The notes beneath the pieces are model-generated. The model made no database searches and was not told the origin of the DNA. It saw only the letters and a program-made list of their open reading frames with translations. DNA of 64,000 bases from an uncultured Acidobacteriota bacterium (GTDB lineage: Bacteria > Acidobacteriota > Polarisedimenticolia > J045): NCBI GenBank assembly GCA_963800865.1, contig CAWDCL010000004.1, positions 791,013 to 855,012 on the forward strand, read 5' to 3'. Every line of letters begins with the position of its first letter. Position 1 is the first letter of the stretch. This document shows, piece by piece, positions 12,616-19,868 of the stretch. The position numbers were made by a program, and so were the translations under genes.

Positions 12616-13233
12616 ATGAAAGCGGCAACGATGTTCTCGATCTCCTCCCTGATCCTGGCGATGTCCGCCTCGATCCCGGCCGCGACGGCGGACAGCGCCG
12701 AGGCGACCTGCCAGCTCCGCAAGGACGGCGAGACCAAGGCGAGCGCGTCCGGCCCCTGCACCTTCTCGCAGCGGCAGGGCAACATCGACATCGACCTGAA
12801 GAACGGCGACACGGTCAGCCTGACCCTGGGGGACAAGGCGAACCACTACAAGGACCAGAAGGGGAGGACGGTCGTGCGGACCGTGCTCCCGGACGGCGCC
12901 CACGAGTACAAGTGGGAGGGGAAGAAGCTCCTCGTGACCTTCGAGACGACGGGGTCGGCCACCCACGGCCAGCAGGGTCAAAGCAAGCCGCAGGCCGATT
13001 CCGACACGCCCGCCAACCTGCGGGACCTCGTCGGGGGTCGCCGCGTCGGCGGCGAGGTGGACGACGAGCTGGTGCGGCGCGGCTACGAGCACATCAAGGA
13101 CGACGTCAACGAGCCCGACGTCTGGAGCTACTGGCGCCGGAAAGGCAGCTCGGAGTGCGTCGTCGTCCACTTCGACGCCAAGCGCGTCGTCCAGTCGATC
13201 GCTCCCGGGCTCGCGAGCAGCTGCAAGCGCTGA
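12616..13233 (+). CDS. Secreted hypothetical protein (205 aa)
   Basis: RBS AAGGAGG precedes the ATG at 12616. Signal peptide MKAATMFSISSLILAMSASIPAATA. Confidence 0.55.
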   Translation: MKAATMFSISSLILAMSASIPAATADSAEATCQLRKDGETKASASGPCTFSQRQGNIDIDLKNGDTVSLTLGDKANHYKDQKGRTVVRTVLPDGAHEYKWEGKKLLVTFETTGSATHGQQGQSKPQADSDTPANLRDLVGGRRVGGEVDDELVRRGYEHIKDDVNEPDVWSYWRRKGSSECVVVHFDAKRVVQSIAPGLASSCKR

Positions 13234-13288
13234 CGGTTGGCGGCATACGACCGCCGGTCCGGGCCCCCAGCGGCGGTCCGGGCCGGCG

Positions 13289-14037
13289 CTAGCCTCCCCG
13301 GACGAGAGCGTCCGGGACCTCGTACCGCTCGTCTTCTCCGAGCTTCACGACGGTGAGATCACCCGTGCGCGTGAAGGTCAGCGGGCCGGTCGAATCCGAC
13401 GCCACGGGATCGCCCTTGACGAACAGGACGCGGCGCACGAGGCCGCCGGGGCCGTGCACCTCGACCGTGGCGGTGCCGTCGAAGCCGCGGCGGGTGACGA
13501 AGGCCTCGCACTCCTGCGGCTTCGTCTCGAACGGCGGCACGCACGGGATCTTGGCCGAGGCGTGGAAGGAAGTGCCCGGGACGAGCGCGTCCTTCGAGGC
13601 TGCCGTCGGCGCGAGCGCCTGGCCGGTCACGCCGAGGGTCAGCGTGTAGTTGCTCGACTCGTTGCGGCGCGCGGCGGGGCGCATCAGGTAGACGCGGACC
13701 GTGTAGTCGCCGTCGGTCGGGGAGCATGCCCTTGAAGTCCGCGCCGCTGTCGCCGACGAACATCGCGACGTCCGAGCTGCCCGGCGGGAGCACGTTGAAA
13801 TAGTTCTGCGGGTTGGACTTCTTCAGCGCTACGACCAGCGTCTGGCCGGCCCCCGCGCGCAGGACGTAGTCGACGATCTGGTCACCCTTCAGGGCGCCCT
13901 GGATCGTGGCGCTGCTCGCGCCCGGCTTGAAGTGGACCGTTTCCTTGCGGATCTGCTGCGCCGTGGCCGGAACGGCGAGCGCCAGCAGGACCGCGACCGT
14001 CCCGATCGTCATCGACATCGATCTCATCTCGCCACCT
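13289..14037 (-). CDS. Secreted hypothetical protein, interrupted by a frameshift near 13718-13726 (a CCCC run on the coding strand)
   Basis: RBS GGGAGGTGG precedes the ATG at 14037. Signal peptide MRSMSMTIGTVAVLLALAVPATAQQ. The N-terminal part is in the 13359..14267 frame and the C-terminal part (TDGDYTVRVYLMRP...) is in the 13289..13684 frame. Confidence 0.55.
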
Positions 14038-14079
14038 CCCTCGACGCGCCCGGTTCTCGATCCCGGGATCCCGCCGCAG

Positions 14080-15201
14080 CTACCCTTTCTTCTTCTTCTC
14101 CTGCTCCGCTTCGACGACCGTGAAACCGGCGGGAGTCGTCGTTTCCGCGGTGGCTGCGGTCGGGGTGACGACCATCGTCGTTCCCGCGACCATCGCGCCG
14201 GCGACCTTCTCGACGAACTCGGGAGAGATCCGGACGCCCGAGAGCAGCGCCTCCGTCGTCTGCGCATCCATTTCCTTGCCCGCGAGCACCATCCAGCGCC
14301 GCTGCGGCGAGTCGGCTGCGCCGGCGCTCACCGCCACGCCCGGCGGCTGGAGCAGCGTGAAGATGTGCGGCATCAGCTTGCGCTCGGGATCGGTGAGCGT
14401 GAACGGGGCCCGGCCGATCTCGACCCCGTTGCGGAAGATCCGGACGCGGCCGTCCGCCCCGCTGACCAGGACCGACACCGGTCCCTCGGGGGCCGCCTCC
14501 GGTTTCCAGACGTAGTCCCCGGTGCGCACCGGCTCCGGGGCGTGATTGCCCGCCGCGTCGATCGGCGCGAACAGCCCGGGGTGGGCGACCGTCGAAGGGA
14601 ACTGGGACTCGTCGGAGACGACCACGGTCATCCCCTTCTTCGTCTCGGCGAACAGCAGCTTGGCGAACTCGTACGGCATGCGGACGCAGCCGTGCGAGGC
14701 GGGATAGCCGGGGAGCTTGCCCGCGTGAAGCGCCACGCCGGACCAGGTCAGTCGTTCCATGTACGGCATCGGCGCGTTGTTGTAGACGTTCGAGTGGTGG
14801 TCGACGTCCTTCTCGAGGATCGTGAAGACGCCGGTCGGCGTCTCGTGCCCCTTCTTTCCCGTCGACACCGTCGCGACGCCGATGACCACACCGTTGCGGT
14901 AGACGTGCGCGCGCTGATCGGGCAGCGAGACGACCATCACGATCGGCCCCTCCGGCGAAGCCTGGGGGTACCAGAAGTACTCGCCGGGCTTCAGCGTTGC
15001 GGGCGGTGCGGTCCGGGCGACCCCCACCGTGGAGGTGGACTTGGTCGGGACCTGCTCCGGGGCGGCGGTGGCCGGGAGGAGGGCGAGGAGGGCGAGGGGA
15101 CGACGAGGGGTGCGGGGGCCGAGATGCGCATGAGCTTCGTACTCTCCCTTGAGAAAACAGCCAGTCAGCCGGCGACAACCGCTGCCGCGAGCCGGTGCCA
15201 T
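14080..15201 (-). CDS. L,D-transpeptidase with tandem YkuD domains; the start is uncertain
   Basis: HGCVRMP catalytic motif in domain 1, and a second YkuD-like repeat (YVWKPEAAPEGPVSVLVSGADGRVRIFRNGVEI). There is a signal-like segment RRPLALLALLPATAAP. The ATG at 15201 is 34 aa upstream of the h-region, and an out-of-frame ATG lies at about 15132. Confidence 0.65.
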   Translation of the reverse strand: MAPARGSGCRRLTGCFLKGEYEAHAHLGPRTPRRPLALLALLPATAAPEQVPTKSTSTVGVARTAPPATLKPGEYFWYPQASPEGPIVMVVSLPDQRAHVYRNGVVIGVATVSTGKKGHETPTGVFTILEKDVDHHSNVYNNAPMPYMERLTWSGVALHAGKLPGYPASHGCVRMPYEFAKLLFAETKKGMTVVVSDESQFPSTVAHPGLFAPIDAAGNHAPEPVRTGDYVWKPEAAPEGPVSVLVSGADGRVRIFRNGVEIGRAPFTLTDPERKLMPHIFTLLQPPGVAVSAGAADSPQRRWMVLAGKEMDAQTTEALLSGVRISPEFVEKVAGAMVAGTTMVVTPTAATAETTTPAGFTVVEAEQEKKKKG

Positions 15202-15337
15202 TTTCCGCGCCCCGCGGAACAATGCAACGGTCGAGCGGTTCTCCTCCCTGTGCGTCCCGCCGCGTTCGCCCGGCGCTTGCCGCGGCCGGGAGCGGTCGCT
15301 AGACTCCCGCGGCCGCCAGCCACCAGGGAGATTCGAC

Positions 15338-16318
15338 ATGGCCCGCCCGACGACCCGATCGCTTGCCCTCCTCCTGTTCGCGACGCCCGCGCTGTTCGCG
15401 GCCGCAATCGGCTTCGCCGCCGCGCAGGAGTTGACCGAGGAGTGGGGCGTCAAGCGCCCGGGCGGCGAATACCGCACCTACCGCGCCGGCAACCTCGACA
15501 ACTGCATGGACGCCTGCCGGGCGGACCGGCGGTGCCGGGCATATGTGTACAGGACGGGCTCGACCGAGTGCTCGCTGAAGGGGACGGTCGGCAACAAGGA
15601 GCGGGACAGCAACCGCGTCAGCGGGGTGAAGAAGTCGGGCGGAGGCTCCTGGGAGAACGACTACGGCACGCACCGCAGCGCGTCGGAGGCCTGTCGCGCG
15701 GAGGTCGCGCGGAGGGTTGGCGTCGGCTCCCAGGACGTGCGGCTCGAGTACGACGACGGGCGCAACTCCAACAGCACCTTCATCTGGCGCGCCGCGAGGA
15801 AGCGCGGCAACTGCGTCGCCAACGACCGCGGCCGCATCGTCGAGTTCAACGACTGGGGCTGGGGGAACGCCTCGAACCCGCGGCCGCAGTGGAAGCAGGA
15901 CCCGGAAGGGGTCTGCCGCCGGGAGGTCGAGCGGCGCGTCGGCGTGCCGCGCCAGGACATCAACCTGTCGAGCGTCGAGTACGCGGGCGGTTCGGCCTTC
16001 ATCGACTGGCGGGGCGGGGGAGAGCGCGGAACGTGCGAGCTGAACGCGCGCACGGGCGAGTTCATCACCCTCCAGGGCCACGGCAACTCCTACGAGTCGT
16101 ACGACTCCGGGCGCCCGAGCCAGGACCAGATCTCGCGCGGCTCGCAGAAGTGCCGGGAGGAGGCGGCGGCGCGCACGAACACCCGCGCCTCGAACGTCAG
16201 CGTCGAGTTCAAGCGGGTCAAGGACGGGGCGCTGGTCTACGCCTGGAGGGCCGCGGGCGAGCGGGGAAAGTGCGGCGTCAGCGAGTACGGCCGCGTCGGC
16301 TACTTCGAGCGCGACTGA
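15338..16318 (+). CDS. Secreted protein with an N-terminal PAN/apple-like domain and three tandem ~60-aa cysteine-pair repeats
   Basis: RBS AGGGAG. Signal peptide MARPTTRSLALLLFATPALFAAAIGFAAAQE. The PAN-like segment is NLDNCMDACRADRRCRAYVYRTGSTECSLKG. The repeats start at about residues 118, 186 and 254 and share the pattern C[RK]xE...R...V.VE......W....RG.C......G.i.EF. Confidence 0.6.
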   Translation: MARPTTRSLALLLFATPALFAAAIGFAAAQELTEEWGVKRPGGEYRTYRAGNLDNCMDACRADRRCRAYVYRTGSTECSLKGTVGNKERDSNRVSGVKKSGGGSWENDYGTHRSASEACRAEVARRVGVGSQDVRLEYDDGRNSNSTFIWRAARKRGNCVANDRGRIVEFNDWGWGNASNPRPQWKQDPEGVCRREVERRVGVPRQDINLSSVEYAGGSAFIDWRGGGERGTCELNARTGEFITLQGHGNSYESYDSGRPSQDQISRGSQKCREEAAARTNTRASNVSVEFKRVKDGALVYAWRAAGERGKCGVSEYGRVGYFERD

Positions 16319-16335
16319 GGAACGCCGCCCGGCCC

Positions 16336-17385
16336 CTACCGGATCCGCACCACGACCTTCCCCAGCGCCTTGCGCTCCTCCAGCTTGCGGTGCGCGGCGG
16401 CCAGCTCCTCGAACGGGAAGACCGAGTCGACGACCGTCTTCAGCCGCCCCGCCCCGATCAGCTGCACGATCGTCACCAGGTCGGCGCGGCGGCCCATCGT
16501 CGAGCCGAGGATCTCGAGGTTCCTGAAGAAGACCGGGCGGAAGTCGGCCTTCATCTCGAAGCCCGACGAGGCCCCGACGAAGACGTATCGGCCCCCCTTG
16601 CCCAGCGTCTGCAGCGAGCCCGGGAAGCTCTCCTGCCCGACGTGGTCGGCGACGACCTGGATCCCGCGCGGGCCGGCCCAGTCGCGGACCCTCTTCACCC
16701 ATCCCGGGTCCTTCGAGTCGAACGCCTCCTCGGCCCCCAGCGTGAGCGCGAGGGCGCGCTTCTCCGGCGTCCCCGCGGTGGCGACGACGCGGGCCCCGTG
16801 GAGGCGAGCGACCTGGATCGCCGCCACCGAGACCCCCGACGCCGCGGCGTGGACCAGCACCCGCATCCCGGGCTCGACGCGCGCCTTGTGGACCAGCATG
16901 TGCCAGGCGGTGAGGAAGGTCAGCGCGAACGACGCGCCGCTCTCGAGGTCGAGCGCGTCGGCCAGCGGCCAGACGCTCGTCGCCGGCAGCACGAGGAACT
17001 CGGTCGCGGTCCCGTTGCGCGCCTCGCCGAGGATCGCGTAGCTGGGACAGAGGTTGTCCCGGCCGGCAAGGCAGCTTTCGCAGCGCATGCAGGAGACCCC
17101 CGGCATGATGAAGACCCGCGTCCCCGGCAGCGGCCCGGCCACCCCGTCTCCCAGCGCGTCGATCCGCCCCGAGCCGTCGCAGCCGGGGACGATCGGCAGC
17201 GGGAAGCGCACCCCGGGTATTCCGCGCCGGACCCAGATATCGAGGTGATTGAGCGCCATCGCCTCGAGCCGCACCCGGACCTCGCCCGGGCCGGGCTCGG
17301 GGAGGGGAAGCGCCTCCATCCGCAGCACCTCGGGGCCGCCGTGCTCGTGGATCCGGAACGCGCGCATCGTCGTCGCGGCCGCCAT
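16336..17385 (-). CDS. Zinc-binding alcohol dehydrogenase / quinone oxidoreductase (MDR superfamily)
   Basis: GGAGGAG RBS precedes the ATG at 17385. GHE-like catalytic region plus a structural zinc Cys cluster CMRCESCLAGRDNLC, and a Rossmann segment AAASGVSVAAIQVARLHGARVVA. Confidence 0.8.
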   Translation of the reverse strand: MAAATTMRAFRIHEHGGPEVLRMEALPLPEPGPGEVRVRLEAMALNHLDIWVRRGIPGVRFPLPIVPGCDGSGRIDALGDGVAGPLPGTRVFIMPGVSCMRCESCLAGRDNLCPSYAILGEARNGTATEFLVLPATSVWPLADALDLESGASFALTFLTAWHMLVHKARVEPGMRVLVHAAASGVSVAAIQVARLHGARVVATAGTPEKRALALTLGAEEAFDSKDPGWVKRVRDWAGPRGIQVVADHVGQESFPGSLQTLGKGGRYVFVGASSGFEMKADFRPVFFRNLEILGSTMGRRADLVTIVQLIGAGRLKTVVDSVFPFEELAAAHRKLEERKALGKVVVRIR

Positions 17386-17421: not shown

Positions 17422-18364
17422 GTGCGCACGCCCCTCCCGCCCGCGTTGGCCGCCGCCGCGCTGCTCGCGTCGTTCGCGGGCGGCTGCTCGCCCGGTTCGG
17501 ACGAGCCCGAATCGCCGCTCCTCGACTCCCCGGCGATTGGAGCTGCGGATGCCCGCCGAGAGCGTCCCGCCCAACCTCGGGATCATCGACATGAAGGCCT
17601 ACCAGGTCCTGGTGTCGCGCGACGAGCGCCGGGTCCTGGTGCGGGCGCTGATCGAGAATCAGTCGGCGCACGACCTGCCCTCGCCGTTCCGGCTGGACGT
17701 CAGGCTGCACCGCGGCGGGCAGGCGGTCGGGACCTGCCGCGGCGACGAAGGGCTGCCGGCGGCGCGGGTGGCGCTGTGCGAGGTCTGGATCGACCCGAAG
17801 GACCCGGCGCTGGAGGGGGCGATCCTCGAGGTCGAGCTGGCGCGCAACGTCCCCGGCTTCGCGGAGTGGGACAAGGTCCCGGCCGACGACCGGCGCGAGG
17901 TCGTGCTGCGCACGCTGACCGAGGAGACCGGGACGCTCCGGATCACCGAGTGGTCGCTCGAGCCGGTCATGCTGCCGCGCGGGGGCGAGGTCAGCTTCCG
18001 CTTCGCGGTCGAGGGAGCGCACCTGGTCTGGCTGATGTCCGAGGAGAAGACGCCCCGCCTGCTCGCCGGGAACCCGGCCGACGGTCTGCTCGAAGGAGGC
18101 GGCCGGGTCAACGTCCTGACCACCGGCCCGGTCACGCTGATCGCGCGGAACTCGCTCGGCGTCTACGTCTACCGCGCGGCGCCGGTCTTCGTCAGCGGCA
18201 CCACCGGCGAGCTGTGGGCGGCGGCACAGGTTCCCACCGCGAGCGGCAACGCGCAGGCGCAGATCCTGGAGCCCGGGATCTACGACATCTACGAGCAGGA
18301 TCAGCTGCTGCTGGAGAGCATCCGCGCTTTCCAGCGCGGCCTCGCCGCGCCGGGGGCGCCGTGA
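17422..18364 (+). CDS. Lipoprotein, hypothetical; the signal peptide and the mature domain are in different frames (+1 near 17535-17550)
   Basis: GTG at 17422 opens VRTPLPPALAAAALLASFAGGCSPGSDEP, a lipobox-like signal, in frame 1. The mature region MPAESVPPNLGIIDMKAYQVLVSRDERRVL... continues in frame 2. Confidence 0.5.
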
Positions 18365-19320: not shown

Positions 19321-19557
19321 TCAGGCGCTCCGACGTTTCCGCTGGCGACGGACGATCGGGGCCAGGGCCCGGAGGGCCTCGTTTACCGACGTCCCGTCCG
19401 GAAACACGTCGAGCACGTCCGGATCGATCATCACGATGTTCGCGCCTTCGGCATAGCGGGCTGCCGTCACCCCGCGGACCGCGTTCGAGAAGTCGTATTC
19501 GGGCCGCATCGTGTCACGATCCGATACCCGGGAAGGCGTGCTAGCTTTCTTCTTCAT
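19321..19557 (-). CDS. brnA: BrnA-family antitoxin (type II TA)
   Basis: MRPEYDFSNAVRGV...IVMIDPDVLDVFPDG...NEALRALAP matches the BrnA signature. The start overlaps the brnT 3' end. Confidence 0.7.
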   Translation of the reverse strand: MKKKASTPSRVSDRDTMRPEYDFSNAVRGVTAARYAEGANIVMIDPDVLDVFPDGTSVNEALRALAPIVRRQRKRRSA

Positions 19558-19559
19558 AC

Positions 19560-19868
19560 ATGCTCCGCTCTCTGCGAGTCGCCCGCCGCGCGGAGATCAA
19601 GCGGGTCCGTGGGGGCCGTTCGGCAAATGCTACCACCAGGAGACGCGCCGAGCGGACATGCCAAGGACAAGATACCGCTGTTCGCCGACCGAGTGGAAGG
19701 ATCGGATTGAAGCATGGCGAGGGGGTCCGCGAACGCCGTCGTGGCCTCGTCGAAAGAGACGCGGTGCTTGCGCCGGTTGGCGTCTGCCTTCCGCAGGTCC
19801 CATTCGAACAGGTAGCCCATGCTCGGCCTCGGACACGATTTCGTGACTCTCCGGACGGGGTCGCGCAT
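19560..19868 (-). pseudogene. brnT: BrnT-family toxin (DUF497) split across three reading frames by two -1 frameshifts (near 19695-19705 and near 19630-19645)
   Basis: Frame a reads MGYLFEWDLRKADANRRKHRVSFDEATTAFADPLAMLQSDP. Frame b reads HSVGEQRYLVLGMSARR. Frame c reads LLVVAFAERPPRTRLISARRATRRERSMY. Concatenated, these reproduce the BrnT consensus. Confidence 0.65.

Follow-up and report, generated by a model that had tools for sequence, protein, structure and literature searches.

A PAN module and three YsaB-like repeats in a predicted exported protein of an uncultured Acidobacteriota bacterium

A predicted exported protein encoded in high-G+C DNA

We analyzed a 64,000-nucleotide (nt) stretch of contig CAWDCL010000004.1 (positions 791,013 to 855,012, forward strand; hereafter the window) from assembly GCA_963800865.1 of an uncultured Acidobacteriota bacterium. 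At 15338..16318 on the plus strand lies an open reading frame (ORF) that runs from an ATG at 15338 to a stop codon at 16316-16318 and encodes a product of 326 amino acids (aa), in which a PAN/apple module is very probably followed by three YsaB-like modules, each with a helix on a sheet and a conserved Cys pair. Direct reading of the sequence revealed a Shine-Dalgarno-like AGGGAG on the same strand (15325..15330), 7 nt 5' of the ATG. An earlier note on this DNA had described the product as secreted, and hydropathy together with an AxA motif supported a Sec-type signal peptide at aa 1-29 (15338..15424, plus strand; MARPTTRS-LALLLFATPALFAAAIGFAAA, followed by QE). This predicted signal peptide has two Arg residues, a hydrophobic core at residues 9-27, and an AAA end before QE, and it lacks a lipobox Cys. 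The mature protein is basic, with a pI of 9.1.

The G+C content of the window is approximately 73%, and long spurious ORFs are abundant in it. Six orthologous clusters from metagenomes were 73-96% identical to the window protein, and two Acidobacteriota metagenome-assembled genomes (MAGs), L001 and L002, carried an orthologue. All six orthologues have an equivalent N terminus, with conservation beginning at AQE[LM]TEEW. Nei-Gojobori ratios of nonsynonymous to synonymous divergence (dN/dS) among orthologues were 0.17-0.43 for the whole mature protein and at most 0.63 for any single domain, indicating purifying selection on the gene. Thus, the ORF at 15338..16318 is a real gene despite its high-G+C background. 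Scanning for a promoter of this gene yielded no sigma-70-like match. Terminator-like matches numbered only two, overlapping at 15158-15173 on the minus strand; neither the gene's own strand nor the sequence downstream of the gene had one.

The N-terminal module is a predicted PAN/apple domain

The PAN/apple module that the earlier note had proposed spans aa ~30-99 (15425..15634, plus strand) and scored above the Pfam gathering thresholds of two PAN models: PAN_4 (PF14295; 35.4 bits versus a cutoff of 27, aa 39-81, nt 15452-15580) and PAN_1 (PF00024; 31.3 bits versus 21.4, residues 48-89). PAN_2 remained under its threshold (18.5 versus 21.1 bits). The four Cys residues of the module, arranged as C56-x3-C60-x5-C66-x11-C78, were all invariant across the seven orthologues, and the conserved module extends beyond the Pfam match, starting at AQE[LM]TEEWG. 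By its hidden Markov model (HMM) scores and its four-Cys core, which it shares with PAN/apple proteins and which forms two core disulfides in that family, the module can be assigned to this domain family. Literature searches on PAN_4 brought up no useful work on bacterial PAN proteins.

In contrast to other PAN/apple proteins, PAN joined to YsaB-like repeats was found only in this orthologue group and in three more distant clusters, of which P0008 has two repeats, P0033 has one, and P0041 is a fragment. PAN modules, which the earlier note had called rare in bacteria, also occurred as triple tandems in secreted proteins of related Acidobacteriota MAGs (Thermoanaerobaculia and Holophagales), from which the YsaB-like repeat is absent (L003 9935..10741, L004 9986..10822, and L005 10004..10858). 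These triple-PAN proteins share the consensus LTEE-G[YF]DR[KR]G.DY...C...C..D.RC.AYTF....CYLK, with modules linked by acidic or Gly-rich stretches, and each of their genes adjoins one same conserved gene of ~330 aa on the opposite strand.

Three diverged copies of a cysteine-pair repeat

The remainder of the protein is occupied by three repeats of ~65 aa, each with a Cys pair and a Trp between the two Cys residues. Repeat 1 covers aa 107-173 (15656..15856, plus strand; Cys119/Cys159, Trp150) and scored 92.8 bits with the repeat HMM, repeat 2 covers aa 181-245 (15878..16072, plus strand; Cys193/Cys233, Trp224) and scored 84.4 bits, and repeat 3 covers aa 260-326 (16115..16315, plus strand; Cys272/Cys312, Trp303) and scored 96.1 bits. 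The Cys spacing within a pair is exactly 40 residues in all three copies, and successive first Cys residues lie 74 and then 79 residues apart. The 59-aa cores of the repeats aligned without gaps, with C, R, W, R-G, and C invariant among the copies, and pairwise BLASTP among these cores gave E values of 1e-8 to 1e-12 at 29-41% identity. Smith-Waterman scores among the repeats were 69-94, versus a shuffle mean of ~24 and a shuffle maximum of 52 (z of 9.3-14.2; none of 2,000 shuffles scored as high). These findings bear out the three cysteine-pair repeats that had been noticed from the sequence. The motif then proposed for them, C[RK]xE at the start, a central Trp, and G.C and G.i.EF at the end, accurately describes repeats 1 and 3 and is slightly shifted at the end of repeat 2.

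Each repeat was 75-95% identical to its orthologous counterpart and 25-40% identical to its paralogous copies, and no tandem repeat was found in the gene at the DNA level. Together, the higher identity between orthologues than between paralogues and the lack of a remaining DNA repeat imply that the triplication is old. Within the window only this gene carries the repeat, and within the loci that we fetched only its orthologues do. Between repeats 1 and 2 lies an invariant aromatic linker (15857..15877, plus strand), which is part of the Trp-rich segment EFNDWGWG..NP.P.W (aa 169-185, 15842..15892). This segment is invariant in all seven orthologues and is conserved above much of the folded repeats.

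The repeat is related to the domain of the E. coli lipoprotein YsaB

In agreement with the statement that the repeat is not a named domain, no Pfam or NCBIfam model reached its threshold for the repeat in the protein, in 17 or 63 isolated repeat units, or in 31 family members. The sole weak Pfam match of the repeat that recurred was YsaB (PF13983). For the whole protein this model scored 23.7 bits versus a cutoff of 27 and covered only aa 270-289, in repeat 3; with single repeats it scored at most 14.7 bits, and 6 of the 63 units matched it, with a best E value of 0.0066.

We compared the repeat with E. coli K-12 YsaB (b4553), the sequence of which was taken from NC_000913.3. In mature YsaB (...LCKDQAAKRYNTGEQKIDVT...FVCSFDADGHFLHL), features follow one another in the same order as in repeat 3 (CREEAAARTNTRASNVSVE...GKCGVSEYGRVGYF). 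In an hhalign comparison, the 63-unit profile matched the single E. coli YsaB sequence with a probability of 87.7% and an 18-sequence YsaB alignment with a probability of 95.1% (E value of 3.4e-8, 56 columns), with both Cys residues in register. Controls with the reversed and 20 column-shuffled YsaB alignments scored at most 17.9, with probabilities of at most 9.4%, versus 39.5 for the real alignment. As a negative control we used E. coli YebF, a small exported protein that resembles the repeat in having one Cys toward each terminus and a similar layout of helix plus sheet. On an hhalign probability of 0.05%, we rejected relatedness of the repeat to YebF.

On this profile evidence, the repeat and the YsaB domain are remotely homologous, but PF13983 as now defined does not include the repeat. 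The two domains are equal in length, and in both a Cys opens a C-[KR]-x-x-A-A-x-R-x-N-T helix motif that is followed by strands, with a second Cys ~40 residues on and then D/N-x-x-G. Both proteins are extracytoplasmic and uncharacterized. They differ in that YsaB is a single-domain lipoprotein of ~100 aa, found here only in Enterobacteriaceae-type records, whereas the window protein combines an ordinary signal peptide, without a lipobox Cys, with three copies of the domain and an added PAN module. YsaB also has Met where the new family has a nearly invariant Trp. Neither a solved structure nor a solved relative of YsaB was found in the PDB, and the searchable literature on YsaB consisted of mentions in gene lists only.

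The repeats are predicted to adopt a cystatin/PepSY-type fold

AlphaFold2 (AF2) modeling of repeat 3 alone with the 63-unit alignment yielded a predicted local distance difference test score (pLDDT) of 92.4 and placed a 19-residue helix (H3-21) before four antiparallel strands. The AF2 model of the full-length protein contained the same layout of a helix and four strands in all three repeats, with the helix at 110-127 in repeat 1 and at 189-201 in repeat 2, where the pLDDT was 80-92. Of the two invariant Cys residues, the model places the first in the helix and the second in strand 3, and the pair most likely forms a disulfide that would staple the helix to the sheet.

In the model each repeat has a cystatin fold, and its helix and four-stranded antiparallel sheet superpose on solved PepSY domains. 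Structural comparison listed the designed cystatin-fold protein 4r80 (9.1), TraH and VirB8-type NTF2-like domains (7-8), the N-domains of copper amine oxidases (~7), the fungalysin propeptide (6.8), natural cystatins (5-6), and the PepSY proteins UipA (7.0), YpmB (6.6), YpeB (6.4), and FoxB (5.7). The listed structures were only ~10% identical to the repeat, and the full-length model returned the same list. The fold of the repeat is thus predicted to belong to the common cystatin/PepSY-type class of a helix on a sheet, without a closer solved relative.

The earlier note had named PepSY and BLIP-like domains as known families that the repeat might match. No PepSY-type family (PF03413 and relatives) matched the whole proteins or, at an E value of 10 or below, any of the 63 units, and profile searches of the PDB returned no PepSY chain at the same limit. 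The repeat thus differs from PepSY domains, including the tandem domains of YpeB and those of YpmB, UipA, and DbfQ, in having no match to them at the sequence level, and we know of no conserved Cys pair in PepSY domains. Similarity to BLIP was insignificant (rank 34 in Foldseek, 4fr9, E value of 0.92, TM score of 0.46) and was accompanied by no Pfam match. With proteins of the cystatin fold (cystatins, stefins, latexin, and 4r80) the repeat shares 8-11% identity, and in contrast to these proteins nothing links the repeats to a protease. The QxVxG motif of the cystatin inhibitory hairpin is absent from all three repeats, the first hairpins of which read DDGRNSNST, YAGGS, and KDGA.

A rare family of extracytoplasmic proteins

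The search for homologues suggested earlier was carried out as an exhaustive hmmsearch with a 17-unit repeat profile against 1.84 billion representatives. It returned 38 proteins at an E value of 1e-3 or below, of which 5 were discarded, leaving ~33 true clusters (50% identity). The discarded proteins (P0010, P0012, P0019, P0026, and P0043) were long repetitive proteins that added up many fragments of 2-8 bits. A word-indexed protein search with the 63-unit profile yielded no matches, and sequence searches of the PDB with the whole protein and with the 17-unit and 63-unit profiles gave ribosomal protein S7 and a homeobox protein as their best matches, with E values of >0.2.

Members of the family contain one to four copies of the repeat, preceded by a signal peptide or a lipobox. 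Where named, their sources were Competibacteraceae, Gemmatimonadales, and Acidobacteriota, and all were labeled hypothetical. Both Cys residues were invariant in the 63-unit alignment, and the Trp and one Gly were at least 90% conserved. The repeat was fused to PAN (P0008 and P0033), a ricin-B lectin domain (P0014), bacterial SH3/SH3b (P0032 and P0039), or DUF3011 (P0015, P0035, and P0042), the last with a weak match to the NCBIfam model lectin_2. Many other members, such as P0017, P0020, P0021, and P0036, consisted only of repeats behind a signal peptide or lipobox. These findings provide good support for the repeat belonging to a rare, unannotated family of extracytoplasmic proteins. The repeat is no orphan; it extends the YsaB family and, as modeled, has a very common class of fold.

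Some members (P0013 and P0024; P0040 and P0044) have C-terminal modules that Pfam did not recognize, with examples reading KCTFEVEVDGVAEVEI.GD.G.LR.LSG.PATWRRL.C and ...V.L.G.R.FR.TFYG..ER......FT.RI..., and these modules may be further undescribed domains. P0007 was rejected as a family member; in this metagenomic protein of 330 aa, a glycosyltransferase-like body (PF03033) ends in the last 32 residues of the family (KDGALVYAWRAAGEQGKCGVSEYGRVGYFERD), probably through a chimeric assembly or gene call.

The adjacent L,D-transpeptidase gene is not a conserved partner

As had been pointed out for this locus, an L,D-transpeptidase (YkuD) gene is adjacent to the PAN-repeat gene (14080..15160, start approximate, minus strand; PF03734, 78.3 bits). 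The two genes are divergent and separated by ~180 bp, both in the window and in L010. Downstream in the window lies a zinc-type alcohol dehydrogenase gene that is convergent with the PAN-repeat gene. Adjacency to the transpeptidase gene was retained only in L010, the closest relative with upstream sequence. In L001, the flanks of which are 90-94% identical to the window, an internal deletion of ~735 bp has taken the catalytic domain out of the transpeptidase gene, a gene for a membrane protein (MDFLKVIRSLEELLYEVMTW...) is inserted at its site, and the PAN gene is intact. The transpeptidase gene was absent beside the orthologues in L002, L007, and L012, which have other neighbors. Because the adjacency is kept only in L010 and is deleted or absent elsewhere, it carries little functional weight, and we rejected the L,D-transpeptidase as a conserved partner since no partner gene was kept over eleven genomic contexts.

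Among distant family members, P0008 lies between aceE and a gene for a MacB-type transporter, and others were found beside a two-component system, near OmpA/PKD and PEGA genes, or among metabolic genes. A histidine kinase was encoded nearby in 2 of the 11 contexts.

The region at ~12780..16336 forms a variable islet relative to L001 8251..11749, between the flanks of 90-94% identity. The L001 islet contains a remnant of an uncharacterized gene that is intact in L002 and lacks a frameshifted gene of the window. Synonymous divergence between the window and L001 was 0.29 for the PAN gene versus 0.10 for the adjacent dehydrogenase gene, an approximately threefold difference.

Other features were observed around the locus. 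A secreted-protein gene at 13289..14029 (minus strand) is split over two frames, apparently by a frameshift near position 13700. The frame with MRSMSMTIGTVAVLLALAVPATAQQ...ADFKGMLPD continues into Arg-rich junk, the other reads ...PTDGDYTVRVYLMRPAARRNESSNYTLTLGVTG...ALVRGG and ends at a stop codon, and neither half matched Pfam; the gene is either a pseudogene or the product of an assembly error. Two plus-strand ORFs, at 12616..13233 and 17594..18364, had no Pfam match, and the former has a clear signal peptide (MKAATMFSISSLILAMSASIPAATA). A BrnT-type toxin gene at 19321..19868 (minus strand; PF04365, 34.9 bits versus a cutoff of 34.5) overlaps a downstream 78-aa ORF by 4 nt, and the two look like a toxin-antitoxin pair.

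Possible roles of the PAN-repeat protein

The product is well supported as a Sec-exported, non-enzymatic, modular protein, and we tentatively favor a model in which it works in the cell envelope, with PAN for targeting and the repeats for holding a partner. The PAN module would bring it to a ligand, either glycan or protein, within the envelope or matrix, and the three stapled repeats would serve as protein-binding modules that hold a partner, similarly to tandem PepSY domains or to cystatin-type inhibitors on hydrolases. The likeliest partner would be an extracytoplasmic hydrolase or another envelope protein. A binding role is supported because all fusion partners in the family are binding modules, because the conserved residues in the 63-unit alignment look like core and would leave the surfaces free to vary, and because there is a precedent in YpeB, the three tandem PepSY domains of which are proposed to wrap around a peptidoglycan hydrolase and retain it (PMC13556211). 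That the repeats act specifically as a clasp or an inhibitor is a doubtful part of this model.

Several observations weigh against this model. The disulfide between helix and sheet is one that we infer from the invariance of the Cys residues and the predicted topology. The Foldseek search of the repeat against the PDB, one of the searches suggested in the earlier note along with the profile-profile comparison that led to YsaB, gave nothing at an E value of <0.1. None of the eleven genomic contexts pointed to a conserved partner gene. Finally, conservation in the 63-unit alignment falls on Cys, Trp, Gly, and hydrophobic residues that seem to serve structure, and it includes no conserved surface motif indicative of a ligand.

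An alternative that we consider unlikely and that, like the three that follow it, is drawn by analogy is that the protein is an adhesin or matrix protein, in which a lectin-type PAN module would act and the stapled repeats would form a rigid stalk or spacer or would themselves bind polysaccharide. Every module fused to the repeat in this family, whether PAN, ricin-B, SH3b, or DUF3011/lectin_2, is one that binds glycans or walls, the invariant Trp/Tyr-rich linkers between repeats (EFNDWGWG..NP.P.W) are typical of sugar-stacking surfaces, and one family member adjoins the OmpA/PKD and PEGA envelope genes. However, no carbohydrate-binding Pfam family matched the repeat, and the members that consist only of repeats imply that the repeat must have a function of its own.

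It is more improbable still that the protein modulates a histidine kinase from the periplasm, where its repeats would contact the sensor domain of the kinase. This reading follows the binding of the small PepSY protein DbfQ to DbfS, reported along with a >60-fold enrichment of PepSY genes beside two-component systems (PMC12714742). The predicted PepSY-type fold of the repeat would suit this role, as would the divergent orientation of the L012 orthologue to a HisKA/HATPase_c kinase gene and the neighborhood of a four-repeat Competibacteraceae protein, where a LuxR-type response regulator is encoded two genes away and a HATPase_c-domain protein, presumably the sensor kinase, three genes away. 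Yet a kinase occurred in only those 2 of the 11 contexts and not at the window locus or in its closest relatives, and the repeat does not join PepSY at the level of sequence.

We regard it as quite improbable that the protein works as an inhibitor, a chaperone, or a targeting factor dedicated to the neighboring L,D-transpeptidase, a reading prompted by the genomic context given in the earlier note. The divergent arrangement across ~180 bp in the window and L010 could fit such a pair, for which YpeB and SleB, with tandem helix-on-sheet domains holding a cell-wall enzyme, would be a precedent (PMC13556211). This possibility is at odds with the ~735-bp internal deletion of the transpeptidase gene beside an intact PAN gene in the otherwise closely similar L001, with the different flanks of the orthologues in L002, L007, and L012, and with the position of P0008 between aceE and the MacB-type transporter gene.

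A metal-binding periplasmic protein, like the PepSY proteins UipA (uranium/iron) or lanpepsy (lanthanides), would be a very improbable identity for the product, as the likeness is at the level of the fold only, the 63-unit alignment contains no conserved acidic or His cluster, and the mature protein is basic. A chance repeat pattern or a spurious ORF, of which 73% G+C DNA yields many long ones, is refuted by the six orthologous clusters with dN/dS values of <0.45, the PAN match above threshold, repeat z scores of 9-14, the wider family recovered by exhaustive search, and a confident AF2 model.

Implications for the YsaB family

For this gene, our analysis provides a better annotation of a hypothetical protein of an uncultured soil or sediment Acidobacteriota bacterium, with no new mechanism revealed. 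Although neither the architecture of PAN plus YsaB-like repeats nor the wider family is annotated, finding them among the envelope proteins of uncultured bacteria is no surprise. The repeat represents a small extracytoplasmic domain family that goes undetected by the Pfam and NCBIfam models in use and that could enter the domain databases. The link also gives YsaB a predicted cystatin/PepSY-type fold with a disulfide between helix and sheet, and the lectin-like and wall-binding fusion partners of its relatives suggest a role in binding to the envelope. A bolder and distinctly unlikely proposal is that the repeat defines a new PepSY/cystatin-type branch that works as a modular chaperone-inhibitor on cell-wall or proteolytic enzymes outside the cytoplasm and would be delivered by lectin-type modules (PAN, ricin-B, SH3b, and DUF3011). 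If true, this proposal would also provide a first lead to the function of YsaB, an orphan lipoprotein of E. coli.

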